Shown: positions 13,849 to 56,222 of the stretch, piece by piece | Layout: every line of letters starts with the position of its first letter | Position numbering within the stretch: the stretch's first letter is position 1 | From: a virus | Virus record (IMG/VR): IMGVR_UViG_3300045988_138661 | DNA: 64,000 nucleotides | Reading direction: 5' to 3' (one strand) | Translations under genes and position numbers: made by a program | The notes under the pieces: generated by a model | Databases searched by the model: none | Told to the model about the DNA's origin: nothing | What the model saw: the letters and a program-made list of their open reading frames with translations, nothing else

Positions 13849-13871
13849 AATTTACTCCTTTCTATCCTAAA

Positions 13872-13915
13872 AAAAATATGGGGAAAGAATATTTCATCTT
13901 TCCCCATAAAAACAT
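13872..13915 (-). terminator. Intrinsic terminator downstream of the tail fibre gene.
   Basis: tatggggaaag aatatttcat ctttccccata, with an 8-T run on the minus strand. Confidence 0.6.
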
Positions 13916-27792: not shown

Positions 27793-27836
27793 AAAAAGGG
27801 TGAAGCCTATAAGACTTCACCCTTAATTTTATTTTC
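27793..27836 (-). terminator. Intrinsic terminator after the tape measure gene (agggtgaag cctataag acttcaccct plus T-run).
   Basis: 10-bp stem followed by 5 or more T on the minus strand. Confidence 0.6.
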
Positions 27837-30800: not shown

Positions 30801-33800
30801 CTCCAGAATTAGTAGAAGAATGATTGTTCGAACTGCCGGTAGCTTTTCGATGAAATCCCTAAATTTTAGGAGGAGTTTTTCCGCCGCTAAAAGATACTAA
30901 ACGCATACCGCCAGGAGATTTTGTAGGTTCCTCAGCTTTTGTTTCTGTTATTGTTGAAATTGAAGGTAAATTAATAGTATGTTTACCTAAGAATCCAAGA
31001 TCAAAAGTTTTAGGATTGTCAGCCTTAATATCTACTACGCGAGTAATAGTTTCAGCATTTGGCATTTCCGCAGAGGTATCAATATCTTCTGCGTTATAGA
31101 CTGGTTCATAGCCAATTCCTGCAAAATAAGCATTAGCTTCATCTGCAGTCATCTAAGATTCCTTAACTAAGTTATTAGCTGCTTCTAAGAAATCAGCATC
31201 ATCAACTTTTGCTCCAATCTCAATGGTCGGATCAAGTTTAGAGCAAGCATCTTTAACTTTCTAGTCTAAAGAATTTATCTAAGCAGTAAATTCTTCATCT
31301 TGTCCTAAAGTGATTCTAGCAATAATCTCTTCATCCATTGAATTTCTTAAAGAATCAATAGCTTTTTCATCGCCTTTAGCTGCTTTAGCAATTTCATCTA
31401 AATGGCTAGTAACAAAATCATCTGAAATAAACTCTTCTTCAACATCAAGGACATCAGATAAAGCAGAACGGGTTTTAGTTAAAGCATTAAAATATTCTTG
31501 ACTGCCCTTAGTACTATTCTTTAAAATATCATTCCAAGTTTCAAAATTACCTGATAAAGTTTCTACTCCTTTATTCATTCGAGTAATCTAAACTGCTAAA
31601 CGGGCAGCTGCGTTAGCATTCTAAGAAACACTATCATCAAATTCTGATGAATTTTTAGATACTTCAAGAATATAAGAAGCATAATCTTTCATAGACTAAA
31701 CTTCATCATCACTTAGTCCCATTTCTTTACCGGCATTAGTAAAGAAATCAGACATACTATTTAATTCTCCGATAGCATTTAACTCTTTAAGACCATCTTT
31801 AAATTCATCAATGGTTACCTATCCATTAGCTAATTGCTATACTAATCTTTGATAAGCTTCGCTTTGTTTGTCTATATATTTAATACTTTCACTAAAATTC
31901 TATAAATCTTCTTCAGAAGTACCATAGGCTTTAACGATTTTATTAAAATACTTAGTACCTAATTCTGTATCACCAAAAGATTCTTGTAAGCTTCTCTAAA
32001 AACTATCTAAATAATTTAATTGATTTAAATCTAAATTACTTAAATCTATACCGTTTAAAGATTTCTGCAAAGTATTCTATAAAGCTGTAGTAAATTTTTC
32101 AGCTACTTCAGGAGAAGAATAAGCTTCTGCTAACTAACTATAAAATTGATCTGCACTAACTTTTAATTCTTCATCATCGACTTTCAAAATCATATTACCA
32201 TTACGCTAAGCAACATAAGATACATCTTCATATCCTTGCTATTTAAGTAACTAAATATAATCTTGAATTTCTTGCTCATTACCACTATAATTTATATGTT
32301 TATTCCATTTAAAATCTTTCTATAATTTAGATTTCTAATCTGCAACAGTTTGACTATAAATATCTTCTCCATTAAATAAGTCATTTATTTCATCAGCAGT
32401 CCTATCACTTCCAAGAGCTGAAAATTCCGCTTCCAATAAATTATTATATAATAATTTTCCCTATTCTTTTAAAGAAGAATTTTTAATTATCTAATCTTTA
32501 TTTTCTAAAATAAATTGATAAAAAGCTTCAGCAGTCTCATCACTAATAGCTCCAATACTAGTTCCAGTGGCATCTACTATAGCAGTTAATAACTCTCTTG
32601 CTCCTTCTTTAGTATATAACATATTACCAAAGTTAGGATTATCAGCAGCATTCTAAATCATTTCACTTATACCTGCTTTAGTAAGAATACTTTTACTTGA
32701 CACTAAATCAATAATATTCTAAATACCCTAATCACTATCTTTAAATTGATTATAACTATTAGTAATTTGCTAATCATTTACCGCAATCTAGTCTCTTATT
32801 TTTGTCGCAGTAAAAATTTTAAGATTTTCTTTTTGAGATTCTCCTAAATATTTTCGCCCTTCATCACTAATATCCATAGCTCCATTTTCATCAATGCTGA
32901 CGTATTTAGATAACTCAGGATATTTCTCTAATAATTTAGTAATTTCAGCATTAACATCAGAAATGGCTTTATACCATTCAATTGTGCCAGGAACTAAATC
33001 ACCAATTGTATCTTTATAAGACTATAATTTTTCTAATGCTGAGTTAGTTTCATCAATATTATTATTTAATTTATCAAAAGCTTCAGAACTCGCTTTTGCA
33101 TTCTCTTCTAACTTTTTTAATTTTGCTTCTGGAGTGCTTTCCTGCATTTTTTTAAATCCAATAGCAATTAAAGTTACAGCTCCCGCTAAAGCAATAAAAG
33201 CTCCAGCCGCAATAAGCGCAGTTGCGGCAACTAAACTTATACCCATTTTTGCTGCTAATAAAGCTGCCGTCTAAATTAATAAACTATTAGCAAATTTTGT
33301 TGACGCAAGAGCAGCCTAAATCTCTGCTAAAGTCATCTCTTTAGTAATAACTATTTTGCCTTTTCCCGCTGCAGTATTAGCATTTATAGCAATAGTTTCA
33401 AGTAATGTCTATGCTGTTGATTTTAATTGAGCAGCAGTTTTCTTTAATTCTGCTTGTTTAAATTGATTTACAGCAGAAGTTAAAGAAACTAAAGCCATAC
33501 TTAAAGACATAGTAATAGATAATAGTTTATCTCCAATACTCATATCTTCATCTTGTAAGGTATCAATAGCTCCTTTTAAAGACATTAACCCCATTGATAA
33601 AGAAGAAAGGGCTGTAAAACTCTAAGTAATTGATTTACCAAAATCATTTAAAGCACTTTGATATCCGCTAATAGCACTTTTTATCTCGACAAACTAATTA
33701 CGTAATCCTTCGTGACCTTTTTTTACAATTTCAATTTTTTCTTTTAATTTTAATAGAGTATTTCCTAAAGCTTCAGCCAAATCGTCAAATTCTTTAGCAG

Positions 33801-36083
33801 CTTTACCAGTTATTCCAAACTATTCTTTTAAAAATTGTACTCGAGCACTTATTTCAATCGCAGTATCAGATAATAAATCCCCCGCATTTACATTTTCTAA
33901 CTTTTCGAATTCTTCTCTAAAAGCTTTGACATCTAATTCTCCATTTTCAAAACGAGCTGATAAATTTCTCACTGCTTTAGCGGATTCTGTTAAATGTACC
34001 TAATCTAATGCTTTAGCTAATATTTCAAACTCAGCATGAAGCTCGGTAGATCTATTTTTTAAAATCCCAATTTTTTCATTAATGGTATTTAAAGCAGCCG
34101 CTCCTTGGTATCCTGTATCTACGACACCATTTAAACTTTGTCTTATTTGTGAATAACTTTTTAAATTATTTTCTATACTACCATTTTTAGAATCATTTCT
34201 TATAATTGATCTTAAATCAGTATTAATGCTCTATAACTCTTCAGTTACCTAGTCTTTAGCCTAAGCCGCCTTAATAACCTAATCTCCATAAGCCTAATTA
34301 ATTTTAATTAAATTTTCTAACTATTCTCTTTCTTGTGAAGTTATATCACCAGAAATTTTCTAAATTTCTTTTTTTAATTCTAAAGTATATTTTAATTGTT
34401 CACCAGAAACAGCATCTGCTTCAGTAACATTATCAAAAGCCATATTAGATGCTCTAGTATAAGCTTCTTCTTTCATCTACTCAGCAGAGCGTTTAGTGTA
34501 TCCTACCAAAGACTATATACCAAATCCAACATTACTTAATCCCTAAGCGATTTGCTTATTAAAAACTTTGGTAAATATAATTCCAACAGCAGCAATTACT
34601 CCTGGTAAGCCACCCATACTTTCTATTAAATCATTTATTTTATCTAAAACGTCGGCTAATAAATCGTTTAATGTAATAAAAAATTTATCATTAATCAGCT
34701 CAGCATAGACGCTCTATGCAGCTGCTTTTACTCTGTTACTAGCAGCTTCCCAAGATTCCGCATAAATATCAGCTTGTTTTTGAAGAGATCCATCAGCACT
34801 CTATGCTCTAGCAAGATTTTCTTTATAATAATCAAAATGGTCCATCAAAGCAATTAATTGAGTATATTGACGGACACCCGCAACCTATTGTGCTAAAGCC
34901 ACTTGCTAATCTTTATTAATACTCTGCCATTTATTACCCATTTCTTCGATGATGTTATCCATATCTTTTAATTCACCATTAGAATCTTTGATATTAATTC
35001 CAACTTTTTCAAGAGCCTATGAGTATTGATTTAATGTAGTACCATCTTCTAAAGTTTCGCCAAGCTTCAAGCCTTGAATACGAGCAAAGATAGTTTTTAA
35101 AGCTGTACCTACGACATCTTCACTTTGACGAGTAGTAGCAGTAATAGTAGCTAACGCGGCAGCTGCGTTATCAAAGCTTAAACCAATAGTATCAGCGACA
35201 GCGGCGAATTTTTCAAGACCGCCAGCAATTTCGTCAGAGCTAGATGCGGTATCTACACCTAAGCGCACCATCGCATCAGCGTAATGCTCTAATGATTGAC
35301 TTCCATCATAAAAGTTATTCCAAACAGCAGTCATCTGATCTGAAACTATTTCAGCACTTTCACGAGCTACATTTGCCATTTTAATAGTAATATCAGTGCG
35401 TTCTTTTACCTATTCATCATTTAAACCCTATTGATAATAAATTAAAGCAGCGTCAGTATATTCAGTAGTAGTTGTGCTTAAAGTTCTGGCCGCGATATTT
35501 GCCTATTTAGCAAATTTAGCCATCTAATCAGAGCTCTAACCTGTAACAATACGGATATTATTTAAAGATTTATTTAAATCTTGAGCGTATCCATAAGCAG
35601 TCTAAACTGCTCCCATAAAACTATGAATTGCACTTGAAGAAATCTGCCAACGAACTGTATTCTTCATAACAGTCCACATTTCAGATACTAAAGCACTTGT
35701 TCTTTTTAATGGAACGTCAGCCTCAATAATAGATTGAGATAAAGTCATAAAGGCCTTTTGGCCTTCTGGTCCTAATTCCATTAAATTACTCTATAATTTT
35801 TCTAAGTTTAAATTACTCTATCTTAAAGACTAAGAGAACTTAGTCAAATCCATTTTCCCAGTTTTTATATTTACCGTTTGAGATAAAATAGTCTATAACT
35901 TAGAAGCGGCTATTTGTGCTTCCGTCAATTCTTTTGTTATAGGTAATTTTTGAGTTTGAACTTCATTTATTGAAGACTTCAATAAATTATCTAACTAAAA
36001 TTGCAAATCTCTAATTTGATTCTAAGCTGATTTAGCATCAGTAGTAAATTGTAAATTAACCTAATAACTATTTAATTGTTTAG
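27829..36083 (-). CDS. Tail tape measure protein of about 2751 aa, coiled-coil rich, with dozens of in-frame TAG.
   Basis: All ORF fragments between 29353 and 35379 share one frame and each is bounded by CTA (checked at 33022 and 33409). SD gagaaaggagatttctATG at 36083. TAA at 27831-27829. The size and position after the chaperone genes match a tape measure protein. Confidence 0.6.
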
Positions 36084-36209
36084 CCATAGAAATCTCCTTT
36101 CTCTCCAAGTTTTATCTTTATATAAAAATAAAACGGGGATAAGAGCAATTATACTCTTATCCCCATCACTCTATTATTTTTCAAAAAATAATATTATTAA
36201 CTAATTTAA

Positions 36210-36743
36210 TTAGCCCAATTTAGTAAGCACATCTTTCAATAAAGCCATATTATCTGGATCATTTAACTTCTTTTGAATGTCTGTCGCATCCAAATCTAAA
36301 TTACTGTAATCTGCGGAAATTGCTTCCATAATACCCATAGCAGAATTGCGATATGTCACAATATTATTAGCCATTTCATGAGTCGTTTTATTTAAATAAT
36401 AAAATTCTCCATCTGGCACAAGACCAATAATAAGATTAAGCACTTTAGAAGCATTAAGCATATCATAAAGCTTCATTGGATCTTCCTTTTGTTTTTCAGT
36501 AAATGAAATATTACTATAAGCATAAACAATCTCTAAACCAAGATTCATATCTAACTTTAAAAGATTATAATATCCAGTATTTTCATCCACTGAGTTATTC
36601 AATACACGAGTAATCAATTCACTCTTTTCCGCAATGGGAAGATATTGCTTTACTTCAATAGTCTAATCATTGTATTCAACAGTTTGAACTTTATTAAGTT
36701 CATCCTTAGTAATTCCTAATTTATTATATGAAATTTTAGCCAT
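36210..36743 (-). CDS. Tail assembly chaperone-like protein, 177 aa, with one TAG.
   Basis: ATG 36743 with SD aaaggaggctaattATG. Hand-checked through a TAG at 36663. TAA at 36212-36210. Sits immediately upstream of the tape measure gene. Confidence 0.45.
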
Positions 36744-36804: not shown

Positions 36805-37848
36805 AATTATTTTTTATTAAATAATAATTCTTCAGTTAATTTTTCGCCATGATAGCGGACTAATCCATCAATACTTTTTTGACTTAATTCTCTTATCTAA
36901 CTAATTCTTTTTTCTTTTTCTTCAATAGTGAAACGATTTATGAAATCAGCAAAACTTTGAGGTGAAAACTATTTATCTCTTAAAATTTTTAACCATTTTA
37001 TTATAGTAGTATATTTCTATGGAGATCCGCCTTCACCCTTAACTGCATATTGGATTTTCCCTCCAGATACATCTCCAATTAAAAATCCATTCATATTATC
37101 AGCATTAATCGCACCCATAGTAGGATCTAACATAAAATAATCAATATTTGTTTCAAGATCTGAATTAAATTTAATATTATTTATATAAAAAGATACAAAT
37201 GCTTCATTAATAGGACCACGAGTAGACATTGTATATCCTTTCCACGAATCTTTATACCATAATATTCTCTTTTTATATTTATTATATCTTAATTCTACTT
37301 GCATTGCTGTATTCTATAATCCTTTATTATCATCATCCGGCAAAGCATTTTTTAAATTTTCATAATGCTAATTCATATCATATTCTAATTTAGCATAATT
37401 ATAACCCTATACAGACGTTTTTTTAACTGCTTGAATATTTTTTATATCATTATCCATTAATCTAATTTCTCTTTGGCCTGTAATTGGATCGACATAGACA
37501 GCAGTAATTTTTATTTCTTGATTTAAAAACTCATTAATTAAATTCTATAAATTAAAAAATTCCTAATAGATTAATATTTTTTTCTACTCTAATAGATTTA
37601 AAGTCATAGTCATTGATTTATTTATTTTACTATTATACTTTTTCTAAATATTATCAAAAATAGTAAAATGATTAATTAATATTTCTGATGATTTTCTTAT
37701 TTTTTCATATAATTCTTTAAAATGTTCCTACTATAACTACTCTTTTACCATATCTTCAGTCCAATAAATAAAATCTTCGGCAATTTTCTAACTTTCTTGA
37801 CTATTATCGCTATAATTATTTTTAATTACCAAATTTAATCCTCCTTTT
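36805..37848 (-). CDS. Hypothetical protein of about 347 aa, TAG-dense (13 or more TAG); possible second chaperone.
   Basis: Continuous frame from just after the terminator at 37858 (SD aaaggagg plus TTG) through ORF 37017..37304. Boundaries are approximate. Confidence 0.3.
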
Positions 37849-37857
37849 CCGCATAAC

Positions 37858-37895
37858 AAAAAAATGGGAGAGAATATTTTTATTCTCTCCCATTA
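37858..37895 (-). terminator. Strong intrinsic terminator after the major tail gene cluster.
   Basis: aatgggagagaat aaaaata ttctctcccatt plus a T-run on the minus strand. Confidence 0.65.
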
Positions 37896-37896
37896 A

Positions 37897-38079
37897 TTAA
37901 TCTTTTTTATCTAATTCAGATAAAATCTTACTTACCTCATCTTCCTCTTGAAGAATTACTTCCTCAATAGGTTCGATAAGCTCTTTCTTTACAGCCTTTT
38001 CTACTTTTGGCTGCTTTTTAGTAGATTCTTTTTTAGGCTGTTTTGGTGGAGTATATTTTACTGGACCTTTTACAACCAT
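37897..38079 (-). CDS. Small Lys/Glu-rich protein, 60 aa, TAG-free.
   Basis: SD attggaggctaattaatATG. TAA stop. Confidence 0.5.
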   Translation of the reverse strand: MVVKGPVKYTPPKQPKKESTKKQPKVEKAVKKELIEPIEEVILQEEDEVSKILSELDKKD

Positions 38080-38084
38080 ATTAA

Positions 38085-39068
38085 TTAGCCTCCAATAGCA
38101 ATGGTGCTATTAGCAGCGGTCTTTCTACGAATATCGTTGTCAACAGTTTCGTCTTCTTCAATAATCTGAATAGCAGCCAAAACTTTCTTACTATGATCGA
38201 AACGAGTATAATCAGGGAATGCGTCCATAGTAAAAGTGAAAGTGGAAGGATCACCAGAAGAAGCCATTGTAAAGTTAAAGTTGGATTGAATCTTGCAGTT
38301 AGGAATAATAAATTCAGCAGGCATATCTACGCCGTCTTGATTGCGGAATAAGGTAGAAGCTTCAAGATAGTAGTTACCACCGAACTTATCAGCAGTAATT
38401 TCAATCTGCTTAGCGCCAGATTCACGCTCAGTATAATAATCAACCATTACGGAGTCGCATTTAGCATAATCATTCTCTAAATCGTTAGTGGTATAAGCCA
38501 CTCCACTAGCACGATCAAATCCTTTTACGGTAATACTAAAACCAGTCTCTCCCGTAGTAACTCCTTCATGCGCCAGATAAGGCTCAGAAATAATTTCGCC
38601 ATCTTTCATAAAGAAAACATAAACATAATCGTCATCTTTATGCTCATTATCAAGATAAGGGGCATAAGAAACAGGAACGATTAGTCCATCAGTCTTAATG
38701 TTTTTTCCAGCGTTAGCAGGGACAATGTCTTTAGTCTTATCAACAGTTTGAGTAATATGTTGCTTAATCTTATTATCAGCAGAAGCCTCAACAAGACCAG
38801 CACCGGAAAGAATCATGAAACCTTCAGGAGAAATAAGAGCATCTTCCATTGTGAAGGTAACAGTACGCTCGCCTTCCCATGCGACTAAGTTAGTATTACC
38901 ACGACCACCTTGTGCGTATACGGTGGTAGCAGCGCCTTCCATACTGGAAGTCTTTAAAGTGTCGAAATAAATAACTGGCTCATTCTTATAAAATTGCTTA
39001 TTACCAATCTTTTGATTAGCCTTTGCCTTTAAAACGACATCGCAAATTTCGCGTACACCAAATTTCAT
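38085..39068 (-). CDS. Putative major tail protein, 327 aa, TAG-free.
   Basis: Strong SD ggaggaaaaaaacctATG. No TAG in a TAG-dense region. Followed by a small gene and a strong terminator. Confidence 0.45.
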   Translation of the reverse strand: MKFGVREICDVVLKAKANQKIGNKQFYKNEPVIYFDTLKTSSMEGAATTVYAQGGRGNTNLVAWEGERTVTFTMEDALISPEGFMILSGAGLVEASADNKIKQHITQTVDKTKDIVPANAGKNIKTDGLIVPVSYAPYLDNEHKDDDYVYVFFMKDGEIISEPYLAHEGVTTGETGFSITVKGFDRASGVAYTTNDLENDYAKCDSVMVDYYTERESGAKQIEITADKFGGNYYLEASTLFRNQDGVDMPAEFIIPNCKIQSNFNFTMASSGDPSTFTFTMDAFPDYTRFDHSKKVLAAIQIIEEDETVDNDIRRKTAANSTIAIGG

Positions 39069-39092
39069 AGGTTTTTTTCCTCCTTAAAAAAT

Positions 39093-39818
39093 TTAATGGA
39101 TATTTTTCATCCAGTTATCCGGCTTATTATCAGGCTTTGCGCCTGCTAATCTAGACCGGATATCAATATCCCAATTAATATAAAGTTGATATCTTTCAAC
39201 AAGGTCATAGAGTTGGAACATTGTTAAATCCATTAAATCCTGTAAAGACATTGAATCAAGACCTATAGTAAGCATTGAAAGATACTAACTAAATATACTA
39301 GCATTAGCCGTGCCGTTTAATTCAGCGACACGTTGTCTACCTCGCATTAATTTATCGGCTATCTTTTTCGCGGCCGCACTTCCAGGATTAAATCCCATTT
39401 CTTGCGAAGCATTAGATTTAAAACAAAATATTTCTTTAATATATTCCTATAATATATTAAAATTGCTTTCGTCAATCATTATTTGTGGGTCACCTTGTAA
39501 AACAATTGACCTAGGGGTAAATAAAACATTTTGCTTTGGAAACAATAATGTAAGAACCTACATAGATGCTTGTTTTTTATCGGCCATCTCTTTTTCTTTC
39601 ATCATTGTCATAAATATCTAAAAATTATTTGTTTCTCTTAAAAGACTTTCGCCCGAATTCTCTATTATGTTTTTATCAATACATAAACACTAAATCCCCA
39701 AGAAAAGATCTTTTTCACCTATAAAAGAAATTTCTTTTATAGATGGCTAATGAATAGTGACTTCTAATTCAGGTATTGGTAAATCAATACCTGTCATTAA
39801 TCCAAGTCTGATATCCAT
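39093..39818 (-). CDS. Hypothetical tail or connector protein, 241 aa, with 7 TAG.
   Basis: Codon-by-codon check from 39276 to 39818: TAG only. ATG 39818-39816 overlaps the TAA of the upstream gene (TAATG). Confidence 0.5.
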
Positions 39819-40399
39819 TACTCTTCAGTTCTTTTTTTAAAATCTTCTATAAATCTTTCCTCGTCATTAGGATTTGGCATAGATTTTTTATCTTCTTCAC
39901 CATGAACTGCCTGATACATAAGACACAAACCCGCATATTCATCAGTTAAAATAATTTGATTTGCTCCAAGAAATTCTAACTTACCAATACCGGTTAAATG
40001 CGTTTTATCTATCATGCTATCAATTTCTGCGGCAATACGATAAGGGCGCAATTGGTAATCTTTTAAATGCCATTGATCAAAATGACAAATAATATCGAAT
40101 TCAATAATATTGTCTCTAAACTCAGGATTTCCACTTTGTGTAAAATTATCAAAATTAATAATTAAATAATTTAATACACTTCCATCAACATAAAGCTTAG
40201 GAATTAATTTAATATTTTTATTAAATAATTGAATCATTTGTTCATCATTTAGATCTGGCTTATCAATAGCATCTTTTGTTGTATAATACAATAATCGCTT
40301 TAATCTCTCATTTTTACAGAGATGTCTTACAATAATTTCTAAATCTTTTTCAACAGAAAGAAAACTTGATTTAGGTAAATTTACACCATTAATTTTCAT
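39818..40399 (-). CDS. Hypothetical structural protein, 193 aa, TAG-free.
   Basis: ORF track. SD ggagtaaaaggtgttATG. TAA stop. Confidence 0.55.
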   Translation of the reverse strand: MKINGVNLPKSSFLSVEKDLEIIVRHLCKNERLKRLLYYTTKDAIDKPDLNDEQMIQLFNKNIKLIPKLYVDGSVLNYLIINFDNFTQSGNPEFRDNIIEFDIICHFDQWHLKDYQLRPYRIAAEIDSMIDKTHLTGIGKLEFLGANQIILTDEYAGLCLMYQAVHGEEDKKSMPNPNDEERFIEDFKKRTEE

Positions 40400-40414
40400 A
40401 ACACCTTTTACTCC

Positions 40415-41479
40415 TTAAAACAATGATTGAACTACAATCGTTTTCTTATAATCTCCATAACATAAATCGAACTATCCACTATATCCAGAAGTCCAACTTA
40501 TTTCAACTGTTGGCTTTTTTGCTTCTTTAATAACTTTTAAAGAAACTGGCAACTTTTTATTATTCTTTATTTTCCATTCTAGAACAACTTCACCATCAAA
40601 ATAATAAGTATAAGTTTTCTTTGGGAAAATAAATGTTTCCCCTATAATATCAGTTGTCGTAGGATTTGGATCAATTGGTTCCGCAATTAAAGAACCAACA
40701 GTCTTATTATCTAAATTATCTTCCTACTCATTAATATAATATTCAGTCGCATTAACTTCTAAAATACCTGGCATACTTATTGAATCTACAGCTTCAACAC
40801 GCCAACAAATTAAATTGTCTCCCTCATCCTAACCATCTAAATAAAATTTAGTATAACGCCTAAAATAACTTAAAGTATCTTTATTTTTTGGCATTAAAAT
40901 ATTTAATGAATAATTAGGATTATCTACACTAATTTCATGTTTCTAAATATAATTAATTTTCGTTTCTACCGGACCGCGGATTGCTGCATAAGTAGATTTT
41001 TTCTCTCCATTATCTACCCAATTTATTTTATAAGAGCATTTTCTAATATCTCCTCTAAAATAAGCCAATTCAGTTAAATCCTAAAGATAACAAATCCAAT
41101 AGGTATTAGTTCCGCACCATTCAAAGATATCTCCCGGTTTAAACTAATACTCATTTCCAACAGACAAAATCTTGTCATCATAATCCTATTTTAATTTATT
41201 GGGATTAATTAAACACCTAATAGGTTTTTTATATTCCGCATCCTATTTAATAATTTCTGCGGCTTGATATGAATTCCATACTGCTCTATCCAAGCTTCTG
41301 CGCTTAGATAAAATCATACGCTCTTGTTGGCGGTTTCCGCCCATTTGACCGAGCCGAACCGCCATATAATTAACGCCTTCAACAGGGCTACCTTCAAAGG
41401 GTGGTTTATCATAAATTCCTAAGCGACCTTGCTATAATCTAAAAGGTTGCTTACTACTATAATCAAACCCTGACGCCAT
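40415..41479 (-). CDS. Structural protein of about 354 aa, with TAG.
   Basis: SD ggagataaattATG at 41479. Hand translation continuous through TAG to TAA at 40417-40415. Confidence 0.4.
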
Positions 41480-41760
41480 AATTTATCTCCTATAAAAGAC
41501 TGATCGTTTCAAATACAGTCTTACGATAAAAATTAAAATCAGTATCTCGATTCTACAATCCCTCAAGTTTATTTAATAACTATAAATAAAGGGGTTCAGC
41601 GTTAAAAATCACACTAAACCCCACAATTTCATTTATAACAGTTTCTAGCTATTTATGCCAATCTTCATTATTTTCGCGCATTGGAATTAATTTCCATAAT
41701 TGATTGGTTAAGCGCAAACAATTTACCTTTATACTCTCTATTGGAATATCAAAATTATAT

Positions 41761-42333
41761 TTAGTAATCATATCGACTTTTAAACACATCCCAATTAGAT
41801 TCATACTCACCTTTGTCATTTAGACGTCTGCGTTTATATAAACGCTACATATGGTGAGATTGTCTTTGGCATTCACTTAACAAACTTAACAGCTTTGATA
41901 GATGATTTGCCTAAGAAGTAAATTTAAAATCAGAGCCACTATATTTCATTCGAGTATTCTCAATTGAAGTGACTTGCCTTTGCGTCCAACCGCACATCAT
42001 TAAAATAGCTAAAATATTAATTTCTTCTTCAGTTAGATCACAATTAAAACTAGATCTATCAACTAAAACTTGAGGTTCTTCACCCGGTTCTGGAAGTTCT
42101 CCCCATACCGTTCCTACAATAAAATCATCCGGCATAGCATCAGATTCATTAATAGTAGCAACATCTAAATTATAATCTAAAAGATTTTTTCGCGGAAATT
42201 CAAATCCAGGAATAGCATCTATTATAAGATTCTATAAATCTCTTAAAGTATCTTCAGGAGTCAACTCCAGATACATGTCATCAGTAACCTTGTTTAGAAA
42301 GCGATTATAAACAGCTGAGAATAATGTTCCCAC
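41761..42333 (-). CDS. Hypothetical protein of about 190 aa, GTG start, two TAG.
   Basis: SD taggagggcgattaaGTG. Includes ORF 41911..42135. TAA at 41763-41761. Confidence 0.45.
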
Positions 42334-42352
42334 TTAATCGCCCTCCTATAAA

Positions 42353-42946
42353 TTATTTCTTGGAGGAAGTTTCCTCGGTTTTATTAATTACTTTATATCC
42401 AGAACCGCTTGTGCGACGACCTTGAGTAGTAGGTTCTTCTCTTACTACACGGCGCTTAGCTGCTGGTTCTTTCTCTACAATAGTATCTTCTTCTTTACTA
42501 GCGATATCATTAGCAATAGCTTTATCAACATCAAACCCAGTTTTTTCCTTCAAAGCTCTACGCTTATTAATATCAGTAATAGGAAGGCTAACAGATAAAT
42601 TCTTGATTAAGTCAATAATTCCAATAGGAGCAAAATCAAGAGCATCTAAGAAAGCATCTAATGAGCCATTAAGAATTAAATCAGCAACTTGTTGCTCTGA
42701 CATATTATATTCAGGTTCAGTATGAACATTAAGAGTATGAGTTACTTCTGGCTCTAAAATTTGTAAAAAATTAGCAATCAATTCGCGGCCGCCTGCCTGA
42801 TAAGTTAACTTCTCTAACTCACCAAATGGAATACGTTTAGTTTCACCGGGCGCAAATTCACGACGCAAATTAGTATCAGGAATAGTATAAACAACTACGC
42901 TAGTGCTTCTATTTTTTACATTATAAATATCTTCATTATTAATCAT
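42353..42946 (-). CDS. Hypothetical head or connector protein, 197 aa, TAG-free.
   Basis: ORF track. SD aaaaggagaaattgaATG. TAA stop. Confidence 0.55.
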   Translation of the reverse strand: MINNEDIYNVKNRSTSVVVYTIPDTNLRREFAPGETKRIPFGELEKLTYQAGGRELIANFLQILEPEVTHTLNVHTEPEYNMSEQQVADLILNGSLDAFLDALDFAPIGIIDLIKNLSVSLPITDINKRRALKEKTGFDVDKAIANDIASKEEDTIVEKEPAAKRRVVREEPTTQGRRTSGSGYKVINKTEETSSKK

Positions 42947-42974
42947 TATTCAATTTCTCCTTTTACTCATAAAA

Positions 42975-43020
42975 CAAAAATATGGGGAGAGGGAGTTTAA
43001 TCCCTTCTCCCCATGGAATA
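42975..43020 (-). terminator. Strong intrinsic terminator after the major capsid gene.
   Basis: ccatggggagaagggattaaactccctctccccatatttttgtttt on the minus strand. Confidence 0.65.
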
Positions 43021-43032
43021 ATTTATATTAAA

Positions 43033-44139
43033 TTAGACATTGCCATCAAGACGGCCATCATAAGTGACAACCTTACCGGTGACTCCATCATAATTCCAAG
43101 TATACATCTGACCGAGAAGTGAAGTATCAACATAGGCACAGATGTTATTAGCAAGCATACAAACTACGCCAACCTTCTTGTAAACCTGAATCTCACGAGA
43201 ACGATCATAATTGTTAAACTCGTCAACAATAGTGCCGCCTTCGAAAGCAATCTTTACAGGCTTACCATCAGCGCCCGTAGGAATAACCCAAGCATAACCA
43301 GGATCAATAACCTTACGAGTATTGGTTTCATCTTCAAAGCCCTGCTCAAGAATAATAACCTTAGTGCCCTTGTAAGTAGCAAGACGACCATTATTCCAAA
43401 GCTCGTTCTTCATAGCTTCAGTATATCTCCAAGCCTCATGAGGAATCATCTTAACAGCGAACTCATAAGTGCAATAAATAGTAGGAGTACCATAAGCAGA
43501 AGCAATAGTAATCAAACGATCCATAGCCGCTTCATCAAATCCGGCAGCCGCAACGCGGTTAGCAGGAGGAAGTTGATTGATAGAAGATCTAAGAGCAGCA
43601 GCAACTTCTTTATAAATAAGTTCATCCATACCATCCATGATGATCTTGGTTACTTCACCAAAATCAACACGACCATCAAGGAACTCTTCGAAGCCAATCT
43701 GAGCAGCTCCGCCGATAGCGCTAGTACGTACCTCGAAGGCTTCATTCTCTTTAGGTCCGAGCTTGAAGACTTCATAAATACCAGCAAGACCAACGCGAGT
43801 TACAAACTGTTTAGCACGAGCACGATTATTAAGAGGACGACGGAAGACAGGCTTATCACCCTGAGCGAAAGTCTTAACCTCAGCAAACTGATCATATTGC
43901 TGAATAACTTTCTTAGGAAGAACCTCATCAAGAGTCTCCTCAATCATAGAGAAAATAAGATTCTTATTTTCACGATAAAGAGCGTAAGTACCAGCCAACT
44001 CATTCATTTCATTACGAAGAGTTTCATTTAAGGCTTCATAACTAAGATTTTTTCCCTCATAACTATAAGCAACAGGAGCAGAAGGATCAGCCTTAGCAAC
44101 TTGCTTCATAAGAGCAACTAAATTATTTTTATCTAACAT
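43033..44139 (-). CDS. Putative major capsid protein, 368 aa, TAG-free and with higher GC than neighbours.
   Basis: Intact ORF. SD aaaggagaaaaggataATG. Sits downstream of scaffold and decoration-like genes and before a strong terminator. Confidence 0.55.
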   Translation of the reverse strand: MLDKNNLVALMKQVAKADPSAPVAYSYEGKNLSYEALNETLRNEMNELAGTYALYRENKNLIFSMIEETLDEVLPKKVIQQYDQFAEVKTFAQGDKPVFRRPLNNRARAKQFVTRVGLAGIYEVFKLGPKENEAFEVRTSAIGGAAQIGFEEFLDGRVDFGEVTKIIMDGMDELIYKEVAAALRSSINQLPPANRVAAAGFDEAAMDRLITIASAYGTPTIYCTYEFAVKMIPHEAWRYTEAMKNELWNNGRLATYKGTKVIILEQGFEDETNTRKVIDPGYAWVIPTGADGKPVKIAFEGGTIVDEFNNYDRSREIQVYKKVGVVCMLANNICAYVDTSLLGQMYTWNYDGVTGKVVTYDGRLDGNV

Positions 44140-44156: not shown

Positions 44157-45074
44157 TTACTTAATACGCATTACCTTGACGCCCTTTTGACCATCAGGCA
44201 TAGTATAAACTTTAACAACCTGCCAGATCATTGAATCGTCACCAGTTTTGCTAAGAATACCCTTTGTAGCAGCAGAAGGAGAAAGTTTATCTCCAACAGC
44301 AAGAGTCTCTTCATTAATCATATTAGTAGTGTAAAGATCACCAATCATGGTCTTAAATACACGAGGAACCATAGAAGTGCCAGATTCCATGAACTTCTCA
44401 TGATAGATACCTAACTTATGATATGGATCATTGGTCCAATTTGCTTCATATATATCAGGAACATCAGTAAGAAGTTTATCATAGTAATACTTTACAGGAA
44501 CATTAGCAACCTGATGATTACTATCAAGAGTATATTCATTACCATCATAAGTAAACTTGCCAGTTTCATCAACATCATAAACACGGCCAGCAATAGTAAC
44601 AGTCTTTAAACCCTGATCAGCGGAAACGGTCTGATTGATCAATTTATAAGTTTGACCCTTATCATCAACGCCGTTCCAGAAACGACCACCATATTCAACC
44701 TCGGTATGCTCCCAATCATAAGGGCTATAAACACGAGCCTGATAGTCATCCTTAAGCATAGCAAATTCGCAATCCCACTGCTTACTGCCATCAGAATGAT
44801 CACGATAAAGCTTAATCTCGTTATAAACGAGCATCCATTCACCTTCGCCAGTAAAGTTGACTTCGCCGATACCATTACCATTAGCAGCATAGTCATACTT
44901 TACAAACTGACCGTTTTCAAGAATCTCAATGTCTTTATTGGCGGGAAGTTGAGCATAGATTTGAGCATTTCTTTGTGCGGAAAGGTGATTAGGCTCGACC
45001 TGACCGTAACCAAACTCAACATACTTTGCCTGAGACTTAATAGGAAGATTCTTATTCAAAAAGTCTTTAAACAT
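44157..45074 (-). CDS. Capsid-associated protein, possibly decoration, 305 aa, TAG-free.
   Basis: Intact ORF. SD taaggaggacatactaaATG. Confidence 0.45.
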   Translation of the reverse strand: MFKDFLNKNLPIKSQAKYVEFGYGQVEPNHLSAQRNAQIYAQLPANKDIEILENGQFVKYDYAANGNGIGEVNFTGEGEWMLVYNEIKLYRDHSDGSKQWDCEFAMLKDDYQARVYSPYDWEHTEVEYGGRFWNGVDDKGQTYKLINQTVSADQGLKTVTIAGRVYDVDETGKFTYDGNEYTLDSNHQVANVPVKYYYDKLLTDVPDIYEANWTNDPYHKLGIYHEKFMESGTSMVPRVFKTMIGDLYTTNMINEETLAVGDKLSPSAATKGILSKTGDDSMIWQVVKVYTMPDGQKGVKVMRIK

Positions 45075-45091: not shown

Positions 45092-46138
45092 TTAATTTTT
45101 GTTGGCGGTAGCAAAAGCCGCCTTCACCCAAGCGGGCATATCATCATCTTCTGAACCATTATTGTTCAAATTAAAAGTAGTAGCACCATTGGGCTTATTA
45201 TTTTCGTCAAGGTCGAAACTCACCTTGTTGCGAACACAAATAACAGATAATTTAGCTTCAATATCATCAAGAGAATATTTATCAATATTTTTAACAACAT
45301 CAGCCTTATCTTCATCAGAAAGCATATAGAATTTAGCAATCATATCTTCTTTATCTTTCTTCTCAGCAGCATTTTTAAATTCAGCAAGTGGAGCAATTTG
45401 CTCTTTCAAGCTATTATTTTCAGTTTCAAGAGCCGCGAATTTAGTCTGTAATTCATCATACTGAGCTTTAAGTTCAGTATATTCAACGACATCTTCAAGA
45501 GAATAATTTTTCTTTTTCTTTTTATCATCGTCATCATTCTCGCCTTTGTCGCCTTTGTCAGACTTATTAGAGGGTTCTCCATTATCAGGATTCTTCTTAT
45601 TATCATTGCCCTCTGATTTATTATCAGGGTTTTGGCCATTAGATTTATTATTTTTGTCCTCTTCCTCAGCCTTTTTCTTTGAAGCATAATTAGTCTCAAA
45701 AGCTTCAATATCAGCAAGAGCAAACTGAGGCTCTGCTGCCGGAGTATAAGACTTAGTTACTTCAGTTAAAGCGTCAGAAGGAACAAAGCCTTCTGCATCG
45801 GTAAGAGAAAAGTCCATGCGATAATATTTTTGATCTTGTCTATTTTGAAGAATAGCAAACTTTTGTCCAGCATCTTCATAAACGCCTTCAATGCGATAAA
45901 TAGAACAATAACTACTAGGCTCGCCAGGATACTTAGTCTCAATATAAGACCAGAGAGAATTCCACAAACTATCGCCAATTTCAACAGCATATTGTGTAAA
46001 CACTTTGGGTCCTCCTTCTTTCATAAATTCTTTAAGTTCATTCATCATGGAGAACAAAGTGTTCTTAAAACCATCATCGAATGAAAAATTCACATTGATT
46101 TGGGAGCCTTCGAAACAAGGTTCATTTTCTTCTCCCAA
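45092..46138 (-). CDS. Scaffold-like protein with a highly charged Lys/Asp/Asn/Glu low-complexity region and a coiled-coil C-terminus, 348 aa.
   Basis: ORF track. Composition (NNKSNGQNPDNKSEGNDNKKNPDNGEPSNKSDKGDKGENDDDDKKKKK; LKAQYDELQTKFAALETENNSLKEQ). Start uncertain: TTG 46138 or downstream ATG. Confidence 0.45.
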   Translation of the reverse strand: MGEENEPCFEGSQINVNFSFDDGFKNTLFSMMNELKEFMKEGGPKVFTQYAVEIGDSLWNSLWSYIETKYPGEPSSYCSIYRIEGVYEDAGQKFAILQNRQDQKYYRMDFSLTDAEGFVPSDALTEVTKSYTPAAEPQFALADIEAFETNYASKKKAEEEDKNNKSNGQNPDNKSEGNDNKKNPDNGEPSNKSDKGDKGENDDDDKKKKKNYSLEDVVEYTELKAQYDELQTKFAALETENNSLKEQIAPLAEFKNAAEKKDKEDMIAKFYMLSDEDKADVVKNIDKYSLDDIEAKLSVICVRNKVSFDLDENNKPNGATTFNLNNNGSEDDDMPAWVKAAFATANKN

Positions 46139-46168
46139 AATACAAAGTTTAGAAATAATTGCCTTATT

Positions 46169-46681
46169 TATAATAAAAAACTAAGGCTTTCCATTACTAT
46201 CTTTTGCCCACGTAGCATTTAATGTTTTTTCATCAAGCTCCATAGAATGATTATTCCCTTTATCAACTACACGTTTACATTCAGGATACTAACCAGTCCA
46301 CAAATAACCTTCAGTCATTAAATATTCACGTTCGACAACACCATCATCCAAAAATTTCTAGAACCAAACTTTAGCTCCAAGATCAACAAAACCATAAGGG
46401 CGAGTATTATCTCTCATTCTAAATTCGCCATTAGATAATTCAATTATCCTATTATGTTCTTCAAAATCTTCGGTATTTTCGTTAAAAAAGCCAACAATAG
46501 GACTGCCTGGAAGACTATTAGCCATCTCAGTCGCTACATCTTTAGTGATTACGCTTTTATTACGATTAGGCTTATCATCTACATAGCAAACCTTAATTTG
46601 GCATTTAGAAATTAAAGGATTTACAGGAGTTATATTTATAAACTCACAAGGTGTATTTAATTTAATACTTGTATGTTTCAT
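46169..46681 (-). CDS. Head morphogenesis protein, 170 aa, with two TAG.
   Basis: SD ataaggaggatttATG. ORF 46358..46681 continues through TAG to TAA at 46171-46169. Confidence 0.45.
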
Positions 46682-46690
46682 AAATCCTCC

Positions 46691-48334
46691 TTATTTCATT
46701 GCTTCTTTATTTTGAATAGTTTTTTCACTTTTCTAATCATCAGGTTTTTCCGGACGTCCTGCTTCGCCATTAGAAACTTTAGCAGTTCCAGAACCTGAGC
46801 TTCCTGAATTATTTTGAGTTTTATTATTAGATGATGAACCTTTTAAACCCAAAATATCTTCACTACCCATAGTAGAACTCATAAGAGGAGGAATCATAAT
46901 TTCACTTAAATGTAAAATCTCATTTTCAAAATGAGCTGCATTAAGAATAAAACTCTATGAATGTCCAAGAGCAATCTAAGACAATAGTTTTGATTGTCCC
47001 ATTTGCGCTTGTTCTTTATACATTTTAGAAAGTGTTTGATAATTATTCTGAGTAGTTTCTAATAAATAAAATCTAAAATTATATTTCTTATTACTACTCT
47101 TTTTTTCAATAATTCTATTAAAGAATATATTAAACTATAAAATTAAACTTCTTATTGTAGATTCATCATTTAATACTGATTTTTCTAAAGCCATATTGCC
47201 ATCAGTATTAAACAAATTCTATGAAATACCTAATGAATTATAAACACTACGTTCAACTTTAGCTAAATCATCTGTCGTTGTAGTAGTATTTTTATCAGAC
47301 ATATCAATAGAATCTACATCAGTAAATGTAGTTAAAACATCTACTCCAATAGCCCTCTATAACATCTAAACGGCATTATTATGGATATCTCTGGCTTCAT
47401 CAACATCAAATATCAAATCACCATTTTTATCCATTGGGAGCTTTTGGACTAAAATTTTAAGCAACTTCTACATTTGTTTCTTGCGGTCAAGATCTTGCGC
47501 TGCATCTAAATCCATAATAGTAGGAATGGAATTTACAAAAATAGGAACATCACTATTATTAATATTAAATTTAATACAATTTTCTGGCTCAAGAACATAC
47601 CAACTACCAGTATGCTAGCATCCAACCGCATCTTCTAAAGCAAGTTTTCCTTGCTTATATAAAACATAACCTTTAGCAAATTCTTCTGGGAATAATTTTA
47701 ATACTTTTAAGCGATAATTCATATCTTTAAAAGTATCAAAAAATCGCATATCAAATTCGACAACTGGGATATTATTTACACTATAACGTGTTCTACAATA
47801 TCTAACTGGCAATTCTTGTAAAATTAGATTTTTCTCTGAAGGAACTATATATCCATAATAGCATCCATTTTTAACAACTTGCAAAGCAATATCTCCACAA
47901 ATCTTTTTAATATAACTATTATCAAAATAATTCAACATTCTATAAAAATCTTTTAAAACTTTTTCTTCTTTTACATTATCATCATAAGTTTCGGCTGCAA
48001 TATACCAATCATAGCGGTATAAAAAAGCAACATAATTACAAACTCGTTGATATACACCACTTATATCATAATAAAAATTAGAAATGTATCGCAAAGTATT
48101 TAAATCTCTTTCTGCGAGTGCGCGAAGCACATCAGGTTTCGTAATAATACGATTTTGACCTGGGTATCTAATCTTACTATAATCACCAAGTTTTAAAATA
48201 GCATCATCTAAAGTTTTTGTGCCAACTTTTATTTTTCTATTGGCATAATCCGTAGCATCATTATAATTATATTCACAACGACCATTATAAATATCAAAAC
48301 CTTTAGCATGAATCTAATCATTACGATCTTGCGT
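46691..48334 (-). CDS. Putative portal protein of about 547 aa, with TAG and a TTG start.
   Basis: Position between terminase and scaffold. SD taaaggaggtggaacTTTG. Contains ORF 47615..48130 in frame (LRALAERDLNTLRYIS...). TAA at 46693-46691. Confidence 0.5.
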
Positions 48335-48353
48335 ATCCAAAGTTCCACCTCCT

Positions 48354-48710
48354 TTAATAACCTGCTAATTTCATTATATAATCATAAGAAATAAGGTTTT
48401 CGTCGGTATATGGAATCTCTATTAATCTAAAATCATGTAAAGCGCAAAAACGTCTTTTTTGATTATCATTATATTGCTACTGGTATAAACCGCGTTTTCC
48501 GCCAAATTTAGAACTGGCTTCATAATGCTATTTTCCCTAATACTCAATAATGAAATCAATTTTTCCATCATCATCAAATATAACAAAATCAAAACGAAGC
48601 GGACGCCCGCTGGGGCTTTTTAAATCTGGAAAGATATATTCCATTTTAAAAGGTAGTCCTGCTTCTTCTAAGATTTCTTCAATTTTAATTTCTCCTCTTG
48701 AAGCACGCAT
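48354..48710 (-). CDS. Small PD-(D/E)xK-type nuclease-like protein, 118 aa, with TAG (LRFDFVIFDDDGKIDFIIEY-TAG-GK-TAG-HYEAS...). Candidate free-standing homing-endonuclease-like insert.
   Basis: SD taaattaaggagggtggaaaATG directly after the terminase stop. Motif resembles the core of Vsr/DUF559-type endonucleases. Confidence 0.45.
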
Positions 48711-51698: not shown

Positions 51699-52754
51699 TT
51701 AAGATTTTTTGGCCTTAGAATTTCGACAACTTTTACAAATACTATAAAAGCCATCTTTACTTGTTTTATTTTTACTAAAATATTTATTGTGAGCTAATTT
51801 TATTTTGCCACAACGACTACATTTTTTATATTTACCTTTTTCAACATTTAAATAATAATTATCTAAGTATTCATCTTCCGCAGTCGAAGCAATTAATTTT
51901 GGAATTTTATTACGCCATAAACTTGAAATATATTCAAGGCTGTGCTTAATACCAAATTCCATTTGTATTTTCTCTTGAATGTCAATATTTTGTAAACCAT
52001 CAATTTTATATTCAACGATTCTATCATAAAGAGGATAATTAGCTAAAGCTTTATCACAAAGTTTATCAAAATCCTCCATTAAATACCATAAATCTTTATC
52101 ATATTCGCCCCAACTATCTTGCTTTAATCGGGAATAATTACATAAAATCGCAGAACATATCTCAGGTCTTAATAAACTAATTCCATCAGGAATGGGAAAA
52201 CCATCATCATCAAAAATAAATGTTTCATCATCTAATGGAATATAAGACTTTGATCTGGTTAATTTTGTAGGCACTATTGGACGACGATAAGCATTTTTTA
52301 TAACATACTAATCTTTACGCATTTCAATAAGAGCCTTTTTAATAACAAAAGCATCTTTACCTTCTGTTACTTTTAATTTAGCCTCCCAAACATTAATGGC
52401 TTCTCTTAACTAATTTAAACTTGGTATCTCTTCTAAATCTTTTTTTGTAATTGTAATATGTGGTTGAAATATTGTATTTCTATTATCTGTAATTAAATTA
52501 TAAATTCCATCTTCGCCATTTTCGAGTTGGGAAACAAGACCTTCAAAAGAAGTCTCACGTTTATTAACTGTAGCCATACGATTATCAGTTAATAATTTTT
52601 TCTCCTTTTTTTCTTGTTTCTCCATACAAAGAACCAAATAGTCTGCTAAAATTTCTAAATACTTTTCAGGCGGATCTGGATTATCAGCCAAAATTTGTTC
52701 GACTAATTGATTTCTTTCTTCTGGAGTTTGTAAAGAATAATCAAGTTTTATCAT
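51699..52754 (-). CDS. Hypothetical protein, 351 aa, with a C-terminal zinc ribbon (CSRCGK...CKSCRNSK) and 2 TAG. First gene of the leftward arm.
   Basis: ORFs 52410..52754 and 51699..52274 share one frame; the gap was hand-checked. SD ggaggtaaaaaATG. TAA at 51701-51699. Confidence 0.45.
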
Positions 52755-52946
52755 TTTTTACCTCCAGTCTATGTTTATATTATACTCGAAAAAATTTTTT
52801 TTGTCAAGTTTCATTTAAAAATTTTTCTTTTTATATTTAAAAATTTTTTTAACAAAACAAATAACTTTTGCCCAATCACGCCCTACGATTTGACATTTTT
52901 TATTTTTTATTTTATTATTATTATAAGAAAAAGAAAAGGAGTATTT
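52755..52946. promoter_or_regulatory. Divergent promoter region separating the leftward recoded arm from the rightward standard-code arm.
   Basis: Minus strand: TTGACA-N18-TATAAT then SD. Plus strand: TTGACA-N17-TATTAT then aaaggag and ATG at 52947. Very AT-rich. Confidence 0.5.
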
Positions 52947-55925: not shown

Positions 55926-56104
55926 AAAAAAACCTCTTGACAGACCCCTTAGAGTGTGATACAATAAGGATGTCAAGAGGCAGACAGGAGCGAACAACCT
56001 CTCCCCAATGCGTAGTTGGGTGAAGTAAAACAAAATCTCCCTACCGAACAAAAAAGTTCAAAAAACCTCTTGACAAACCCCTTAGAGTGTGATACAATAA
56101 GGGT
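55924..56104 (+). repeat. Tandem duplication of a 44-bp promoter unit (aaaaacctcttgacaNaccccttagagtgtgatacaataagg) at 55924-55967 and 56061-56104.
   Basis: Near-identical copies. The first is followed by AUGUCAAGAGG..., the second by the tRNA-like element. Confidence 0.6.
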
Positions 56105-56110
56105 ACAGAT

Positions 56111-56222
56111 GGCGGTGAGGTAGAACGGTTCTACTTCCACAAAGATGGCTGAGATACAAAAGTGTCGCTCACTTGGAAACGTTCGCTATTGGAAAATGTG
56201 GGTTCAACTCCCACCACCGCCT
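56111..56222 (+). tRNA. tRNA-like element of 113 nt: 7-bp acceptor stem (GGCGGTG/CACCGCC), D-arm (GTAG-AACGGTT-CTAC) and canonical T-arm (GTGGG-TTCAACT-CCCAC). Has an insertion of about 40 nt in the anticodon region, so either an atypical or intron-containing tRNA, or a tRNA-like RNA.
   Basis: Arms identified by hand. Possible anticodon stem 56136-56140 / 56189-56193 enclosing the insert. The promoter places the TSS about 5 nt upstream. Length is atypical and the anticodon is unresolved. Confidence 0.45.

Follow-up and report, generated by a model that had tools for sequence, protein, structure and literature searches.

Depletion of a reassigned TAG codon from the capsid and tail-tube genes of a recoded gut siphophage

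Code-15 recoding of phage late genes, in which the stop codon TAG is used as a sense codon, and its link to low G+C content have been described (Borges et al., preprint 10.1101/2021.08.26.457843). Why, in such a phage, do some late structural genes contain many TAG codons and others none? The question is raised by IMG/VR virus record IMGVR_UViG_3300045988_138661, a viral DNA of 64,000 nucleotides that was analyzed at its full length (henceforth the window), in which the genes that encode the major capsid (43033-44139) and major tail (38085-39068) proteins are free of TAG and lie among TAG-rich neighbors. An earlier note, made from the sequence, had taken this pattern as a sign of inefficient or conditional suppression, with TAG acting as a translational throttle or timing gate for the remaining late genes. 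Here, we examine TAG and glutamine (Gln) codon usage across the late genes of the window and of its relatives, and argue that the probable cause is translational selection, acting in the most highly expressed genes against a codon that is slightly leaky.

The window has a G+C content of 32%. Minus-strand genes form an unbroken block over 227-52754 at a G+C content of ~0.28, and small plus-strand genes follow from ~52.9 kb at 0.43; unless indicated otherwise, all genes and terminators discussed below lie on the minus strand. When TAG is read as sense, minus-strand coverage by open reading frames (ORFs) of at least 150 amino acids rises from 20.5 kb to 53 kb, and the same scan of the window with TGA as sense brings little gain. 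Among the ORFs restored in this way are those for the terminase large subunit, the portal, a 2752-aa tape measure, several fibre-like proteins, and the holin, and the portal, terminase, and tape-measure genes are full length under code 15. Opposite the TAG codons of the window, Gln is found 647 times (CAA 506, CAG 141) in 20 standard-code relatives, a share of about two thirds, with glutamate next at 82; this dominance of Gln indicates that TAG encodes Gln in the window. In the early plus-strand ORFs (53-64 kb), no in-frame TAG is convincing, and the stops are TAA or TGA, with TAG used in at most 1 of 25; three listed code-15 ORFs on this strand have one TAG each, located upstream of the standard-code start.

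By capsid identity, the nearest database phages are phAss-1 (50%), a code-15 gut phage, and Enterococcus EF1-type phages (40%), with large Bacillus and Lactococcus siphophages also among them; phAss-1 and its group have been described as TAG-to-Gln recoded (PMC10607447). The window holds the late module of a code-15 gut siphophage related to phAss-1 and EF1. Membership in the Phassvirus genus or the phAss-1-like group was rejected, as the capsid is only 50% identical, the gene order differs, and megablast finds no nucleotide-level match to any deposited phage record. At most, the phage can be placed in the wider EF1/phAss-1-related group.

Across the late genes, TAG is distributed non-randomly. 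In 32 late genes, it accounts for 245 of 708 Gln codons (35%), i.e., one TAG per 66 codons. Six late genes of at least 150 codons have none, against an expectation of 0.36-0.48 when TAG is permuted among Gln codons or among all codons, and 0 of 20,000 permutations yielded six. These are the major capsid gene (43033-44139; 11 Gln codons, 3 CAA and 8 CAG), the capsid-adjacent gene 44157-45074 (14 Gln codons, 5 CAA and 9 CAG), the head-module gene 42353-42946 (5 Gln codons), the major tail, or tail-tube, gene 38085-39068 (9 Gln codons), a 553-aa tail-fibre-like gene (13967-15628; 17 Gln codons, all CAA), and 39818-40399 (7 Gln codons), which encodes a virion structural protein (phrog_6123). Also TAG-free is a small 60-aa ORF (37897-38079) between the major tail gene and its terminator, which uses CAG and AAG. 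The coordinates and zero counts that the earlier note gave for the capsid, the capsid-adjacent, the major tail, and the fibre genes are therefore correct, and TAG density over the late genes is not uniform.

The TAG-rich end of the range is occupied by the tape-measure gene (27829-36087, 2752 codons), with 80 in-frame TAG or 42% of its Gln codons, and by four other genes close to the TAG-free ones: 36807-37751 (314 codons, 13 TAG, the richest neighbor), 40415-41479 (9 TAG), 39093-39818 (241 codons, 6 TAG, and a TAG fraction of 0.53 in recoded relatives), and 41463-41819 (4 TAG). For these five, the earlier figure of one TAG every 20-40 codons is accurate; elsewhere in the late block it overstates a density of one per 70-180. 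The scaffold-like gene 45092-46681, with a C-terminal coiled coil, has 3 TAG among 15 Gln codons, and the holin gene (1942-2349, phrog_13712) has 1 among 11. In no late gene of the window is TAG significantly more frequent than CAA.

With the capsid protein as query, 80 loci with capsid identities of 76-99% were retrieved from IMG/VR, 60 of them recoded and 20 standard-code as judged from late genes other than the capsid. Clustering of the recoded loci at 95% capsid identity gave 20 clusters, and one representative of each was tested. In 20 of 20 clusters, four genes, namely those for the capsid, 44157-45074, the major tail, and 42353-42946, have TAG shares of 0-11%, compared with 19-46% for the other late genes (Fisher p < 1e-3 in each representative). 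Zero TAG was found in 71 of 80 relatives for the capsid gene, in 66 of 78 for 42353-42946, and in 63 of 67 for the major tail gene. phAss-1, of another genus, likewise lacks TAG in its capsid (15 Gln codons), major tail (14), and scaffold-like (28) genes and has 110 TAG in the tape measure; all 15 Gln codons of the phAss-1 capsid gene are CAG. The remaining two TAG-free genes of the window behave differently. Homologues of 39818-40399 carry 0-6 TAG (mean 2.5 in recoded loci), so that its zero in the window can be put down to chance, and those of the 553-aa fibre in 19 relatives carry 0-3 among ~15 Gln codons, which makes the fibre TAG-poor rather than TAG-free as a family. Since both genes contain TAG in relatives, conserved depletion is confined to the four genes. 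The scaffold-like gene has a TAG fraction of 0.19 in relatives.

The four genes use Gln codons as if the recoding had never reached them: TAG, CAA, and CAG make up 2%, 41%, and 57% in recoded relatives, and CAA and CAG 44% and 56% in standard-code ones. For the other late genes, standard-code relatives have 76% CAA and 24% CAG, versus 35% TAG, 56% CAA, and 9% CAG in recoded ones. Where TAG does occur in alignment columns of the capsid gene, 44157-45074, or 42353-42946, its frequency is at most 0.1 (mean 0.02-0.03), mostly in columns that otherwise hold CAG, while in other late genes TAG columns reach high frequency or fixation within clades. As CAG is one C-to-T transition away from TAG, mutation supplies the four genes with more new TAG codons than any others, and they nonetheless lack them. 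TAG that is present only at low frequency, in CAG columns, is the signature of purifying selection, and we conclude that such selection maintains the avoidance, given its presence in all 20 clusters, the singleton nature of the TAGs, and Gln usage equal to that of standard-code relatives. The relatives are metagenome assemblies, so the singletons could include assembly errors, which would only strengthen the depletion. The 20 standard-code relatives (capsid 75-87% identical to that of the window) are interleaved by capsid identity with the recoded ones (76-99%), suggesting that recoding has been gained or lost repeatedly within one clade.

What sets the four genes apart? Capsid and tail-tube proteins are bulk components of the virion by stoichiometry, and we ranked expression by protein function, virion stoichiometry, and codon bias. 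The first principal component (PC1) of synonymous codon usage, computed with the Gln codons left out, captures 32% of the variance, and toward its extreme lie the capsid gene, 44157-45074 (second highest), the major tail gene, the scaffold-like gene (2.5), and 42353-42946. TAG fraction falls along this axis (rho = -0.64, p = 6e-4), with the scaffold-like and chaperone-like genes intermediate in both TAG share and PC1. The 553-aa fibre, at 0.44, is no outlier, and 39818-40399 stands at -1.36. Biased genes prefer CGT, GCT, CCT, CTT, GGT, and AAG and avoid ATA, AGA, GGA, TTA, and G-ending four-fold codons; the bias of the four genes is unlike that of the G+C-rich early genes. As far as codon usage can tell, the pattern is that of translational selection. 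A simple G+C effect was considered and rejected, as the four genes do not stand apart in G+C content at third codon positions (GC3) in standard-code relatives and the favored codons are T-ending four-fold ones, CGT, and AAG. The correlation of TAG load with predicted expression that the earlier note had proposed to look for is thus present, the TAG-free genes being those of the capsid, the tail-tube homologue, and two head-module neighbors. That the TAG-free genes are also the extremes of codon bias implies that TAG is costlier than CAA or CAG, so that suppression would not be perfect.

The assignment of functions to these genes is uneven. An AlphaFold 2 model of the capsid protein, built on 72 diverse homologues (pLDDT 88.4, pTM 0.83), gave 314 Foldseek matches in the PDB at E <= 0.001, and the best 50 of the 314 are all HK97-fold capsid or encapsulin shell proteins, which makes 43033-44139 a predicted HK97-fold major capsid protein. 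Searches of PDB sequences with the capsid protein and with the product of 44157-45074 gave no informative match. The product of 38085-39068 belongs to phrog_2729, 'virion structural protein' (E = 4e-55), and by tblastn matches annotated tail tube or major tail proteins of the Bacillus phages Izhevsk, PJN02, and Thrax (E ~1e-20 over 87% of the query); it is also homologous to structural proteins of the Lactococcus 949 group. Its PDB sequence matches to tail tube proteins are weak (E = 0.1), a profile search of PDB sequences came back empty, and its AlphaFold 2 model is confident only in an insertion domain, with a poor core. By sequence, it is a homologue of annotated tail-tube proteins and a probable major tail protein. 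For 44157-45074 and 42353-42946, no informative family or PDB matches were found, and the 'decoration-like' role that 44157-45074 had been given is putative. With its long coiled coil, the 45092-46681 product looks like a scaffold.

Taken together, we consider it probable that translational selection against a slightly leaky TAG in the most expressed genes explains the depletion, where high expression and leakiness are what we infer. The phage would decode TAG as Gln in its late genes, with read-through that is efficient and still imperfect because the suppressor tRNA must out-compete release factor 1 (RF1). Each TAG would then cost a small fraction of the product and yield a truncated polypeptide, a cost that would rise with the amount of protein made. 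TAG codons arising from CAG by C-to-T transition would accordingly be purged from genes whose products number in the hundreds per virion (the capsid, its neighbor 44157-45074, the tail tube, and 42353-42946), the same genes in which translational selection appears to favor preferred codons in general. Elsewhere among the late genes, TAG would be nearly neutral and drift to about one third of Gln codons under AT mutation pressure. Indeed, the first-position T:C ratio of leucine (Leu) codons is 9-22, compared with a TAG:CAG ratio of ~7 in ordinary late genes, and as the latter is below the former, no more than AT mutation pressure is required for the TAG level observed. In effect, this would most likely be ordinary codon-bias selection acting on a recoded stop codon.

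The sequence context of TAG fits imperfect decoding in which termination competes. Compared with Gln columns that never hold TAG, the base after an in-frame TAG is enriched in A or C and depleted in G (p = 2e-5 across alignment columns), and the same bias of A and C over G is seen in the window and in phAss-1. In E. coli, UAG-G is reportedly the strongest and UAG-C the weakest RF1 context, a hierarchy attributed to Poole et al. 1995. The bias thus points toward easier read-through, the opposite of a throttle, on an E. coli hierarchy that may not be the host's. More generally, the downstream base is known to affect both termination and suppression (PMC5373646; PMC11441406).

Several points weigh against this explanation. 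The high expression of the four genes is read from function and codon bias, and the leakiness of TAG is supposed: the window contains no suppressor tRNA, release-factor gene, or RF1 antagonist. The order of RF1 preferences for the base that follows TAG is that of E. coli and may not apply in the host. GC3 fails to set the four genes apart in standard-code relatives, though CAG share does so. The fibre 13967-15628 is low in TAG without a strong codon bias, so that expression does not cover every TAG-poor gene. Finally, a tail-tube family is reported as preferentially recoded in crAss-like phages, so the rule is not universal (Borges preprint 10.1101/2021.08.26.457843).

Other origins of the pattern are conceivable. 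Small genes with few Gln codons may lack TAG by chance, as the probabilities of zero TAG for 39818-40399 (P ~0.05) and 42353-42946 (P ~0.12) illustrate. For the four conserved genes, a chance or gene-boundary artefact is excluded by the permutations and by replication across lineages, and with ORFs that are uninterrupted under either code we regard such an origin of the pattern as practically inconceivable. A recent import of the capsid and tail-tube genes from standard-code relatives, too young to have gathered TAG, would suit the interleaving of standard-code and recoded relatives and the G+C content of the four genes, 0.35-0.41 versus 0.28 for the late region. It is highly improbable all the same, as depletion in 20 of 20 lineages and in phAss-1 would need repeated import of the same genes, and TAG does arise in the four genes, where it stays at singleton frequency. 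Per-gene identity profiles are moreover the same toward recoded and standard-code relatives, with no excess for the four genes, and a recent import of the capsid module from standard-code phages was rejected on this ground. Alternatively, bulk virion proteins might have to be translatable before or without the code switch and hence keep to the standard code; the TAG-free genes can be read by the unmodified host apparatus, and their Gln usage equals that of standard-code relatives. Yet these genes lie within late operons, downstream of the TAG-containing terminase and portal genes and with no promoter of their own detected, natural variants with 1-2 TAG in them occur occasionally, and we see no known reason for making capsid protein before portal and terminase. 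Such an early need is very unlikely.

The throttle or timing gate of the earlier note deserves more attention. It would have TAG density selected in low-copy late genes, where it limits yield and delays synthesis until suppressor tRNA has built up, leaving the bulk virion proteins unthrottled, in line with the Borges model. Regulation of this kind has been proposed (Borges et al., 10.1101/2021.08.26.457843), and the window offers some encouragement: TAG-rich genes encode low-copy components (the tape measure and connector-region genes) and TAG-free ones bulk components, early plus-strand ORFs avoid TAG both in frame and as a stop, and the sigma-factor-like gene heading the late block contains two TAG, so that a late regulator might need the suppressor for its translation. 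The TAG share of ordinary late genes (35%) is nonetheless not above the neutral expectation set by the 9-22 fold Leu T:C ratio against 7 fold for TAG:CAG, and no late gene raises TAG significantly above CAA. The tape-measure share (0.42) is near the average, and its 80 TAG reflect length and Gln richness. A gate made of TAGs clustered at the 5' end was not seen, as TAG positions are uniform along genes (Kolmogorov-Smirnov p = 0.23), and the contexts after TAG favor read-through. TAG-free and TAG-rich genes share operons, with no promoters between them. The holin, with its single TAG among 11 Gln codons, departs from the lysis-gene bias reported for crAss-like and Agate phages; the preference of lysis genes for the recoded stop in the Borges model is thus not seen here, and no endolysin was identified in the window. 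Neither does the window hold a code-change module (suppressor tRNA, aminoacyl-tRNA synthetase, or release factor) beside the supposedly gated genes. Inefficient suppression, the other half of the earlier proposal, is not supported, given the tape measure: by our own calculation, a 10% yield after 80 read-throughs needs ~97% efficiency per codon and a 45% yield 99%. With 80 TAG in this gene, and 110 in that of phAss-1, TAG must be suppressed efficiently while the late genes are being translated. The pattern can be explained without an active throttle or gate, which we hold to be unlikely.

A gate could still act one level above the structural genes. The sigma-factor-like gene (51699-52754; phrog_5767 'sigma factor', E = 9e-55), the first of the late block, has 2 in-frame TAG in the window and 0-7 in recoded relatives, with two TAG columns held by at least half of the sequences. 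It is preceded by a perfect TTGACA-17-TATAAT promoter of sigma-70 consensus (52779-52807, minus strand). Suppressor-dependent translation of the sigma factor, and hence suppressor-dependent late transcription, could constitute such a gate. In a more elaborate form, the suppressor tRNA level would be the master dial of a tuned programme, first licensing late transcription through the TAG-containing sigma factor and then setting the yields of low-copy proteins. Yield would then go as ~p^n with the number of TAG codons (n = 80 for the tape measure), and the bulk proteins would be kept TAG-free to escape the dial. We attach only a small probability to this programme. Close to the sigma-factor-like gene, at ~52.9 kb, there is a sharp compositional break between late minus-strand genes (G+C 0.26-0.38) and early-type plus-strand genes (0.40-0.44), at which GC and AT skew switch sign and the promoter just described diverges from a second consensus promoter on the plus strand (52890-52918).

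The earlier note had also described strong terminators behind the TAG-free genes. Intrinsic terminators do follow the capsid gene (42971-43014; a G+C-rich stem of 13-14 bp and a T run, -22 kcal/mol), the major tail gene together with the 60-codon small ORF (37853-37894; hairpin and T run), and the 553-aa fibre gene (13867-13908; hairpin and T run). No strong terminator was found after the three other TAG-free genes, 44157-45074, 42353-42946, and 39818-40399. Conversely, the TAG-containing gene 36210-36743 ends in a terminator (36122-36167) as strong as those after TAG-free genes, and equally strong ones follow the tape measure (near 27797), the 2583-aa fibre, and the holin, all TAG-containing. 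We therefore discarded the terminator as a mark of TAG-free genes. A terminator-like hairpin of 12 bp (41591-41622; -20.7 kcal/mol, followed by a T run) also lies inside the coding region 41463-41819.

Decoding components are missing from the window, which is part of a genome. ARAGORN and Rfam detected neither a suppressor tRNA with a CUA anticodon nor any canonical tRNA in the 64 kb, no release-factor gene, aminoacyl-tRNA synthetase, or RF1 antagonist was found there, and the anticodon arm of the phAss-1 suppressor, used as a scan query, matched two unrelated contigs only. phAss-1 differs in having three suppressor tRNAs; at 96-114 kb, its genome encodes tRNA-Gln(CUG), tRNA-Gln(UUG), and tRNA-Sup(CUA) on the strand opposite the late genes, with the suppressor in a distant tRNA array. 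A tRNA-like element of 112 nt on the plus strand of the window (56111-56222) scores 37 bits with the Rfam tRNA model against a gathering score of 29 and is not called by ARAGORN. Its acceptor, D, and T arms are canonical, with 50 nt in place of the anticodon loop and no CUA anticodon. Ahead of it lies a TTGACA-17-TGnTACAAT promoter (~56067-56100), which recurs 130 nt upstream (55936-55968) before another short non-coding stretch. The single IMG/VR match to the element, in locus L103, is 88% identical and carries compensatory changes in an outer stem (UUCCA/UGGAA to CUCC/GGAG) and in an inner hairpin (AGUG/CACU to AGGG/CCCU).

Other late genes show features of their own. The portal ORF (46691-48352) runs ~125 codons upstream of its first ATG; it matches the PHROG portal profile from position 129 onward only, so that translation probably starts at a non-ATG codon upstream of that ATG. 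Between terminase and portal, a 118-aa gene (48354-48710) with 3 TAG has a mean identity of 87% across relatives, equal to the capsid level; its sole family match is to DUF2726 and below threshold (23.6 bits against a cut-off of 24.7), and it may be a small nuclease-like insert. Four fibre-like genes (2384-3412, 6100-13848, 13967-15628, and 15955-16224) resemble one another in an N-terminal motif, KF.RG..A.F..., which points to an interchangeable set of fibre modules. One of them, the 553-aa fibre 13967-15628, starts at TTG and diverges much faster than the capsid (80-94% versus 98-99% identity in the same contigs). A plus-strand ORF of 239 codons (1178-1894) with one in-frame TAG sits between two terminators inside the minus-strand late block.

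How does this phage compare with known recoded systems? It resembles the code-15 gut phages of the Borges and phAss-1 studies in having late-gene TAG at Gln positions, an early region that avoids TAG, an AT-rich genome, and few TAG stops, and in the closeness of its recoded and standard-code relatives. Those studies stress enriched genes (lysis genes and a tail tube family of crAss-like phages) and timing; here, depletion from bulk virion genes is the clear signal, and the tail tube is depleted and the holin TAG-poor where the crAss-like tail tube family is reported as enriched. According to Borges et al., recoded stops are subject to selection that 'enriches or depletes' them depending on the gene family (10.1101/2021.08.26.457843). 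The phAss-1 paper lists terminase and tape measure as recoded genes and does not name the capsid or comment on it (PMC10607447). Closest to our observation, the capsid gene of an amber-reassigned Crassvirales phage 'shows no alternative codon usage', which was ascribed to translational pressure (bioRxiv 10.64898/2026.08.21.746148). That was a remark on one genome from an unrelated podophage order; the present comparison draws on 80 relatives, 60 recoded and 20 standard-code, and takes in the tail tube and two more genes.

With the large Firmicutes siphophages of the Enterococcus EF1, Lactococcus 949, and Bacillus Tsamsa type, the phage shares a homologous capsid (40% identity to EF1-type) and major tail protein (29-40%), a very long tape measure, and a phage sigma-factor-like gene. 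Unlike it, the cultured phages of this type use the standard code (for EF1: PMC10607447). A parallel is found in a ciliate, in which reassigned stop codons are used less in highly expressed genes (PMC10553269). As there, the least safely decoded codon is avoided in proportion to expression, here a predicted quantity, and the same genes are biased toward optimal codons. The phage differs in that its code is switched only during infection, with a host that still terminates at TAG, and for this reason RF1 competition is to be expected as a cost and not tRNA abundance alone. The depletion is thus a new and well-quantified example of a principle already known, found in another phage lineage. Two points are added: the tail tube is depleted here and not enriched, and purifying selection maintains the depletion.

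For uncultured recoded phages, these results have two practical sides. Capsid and tail-tube genes remain intact under standard-code annotation, so that recoding can be hidden from marker-gene surveys, and the TAG share of each gene can be used as a free proxy for expression rank. Models of the code switch are constrained as well, since read-through would have to be good enough for a gene with 80 TAG and leaky enough for selection to clear TAG from the capsid gene. In a phage, a recoded stop codon would thus still carry a fitness cost, visible as purifying selection that scales with predicted expression.

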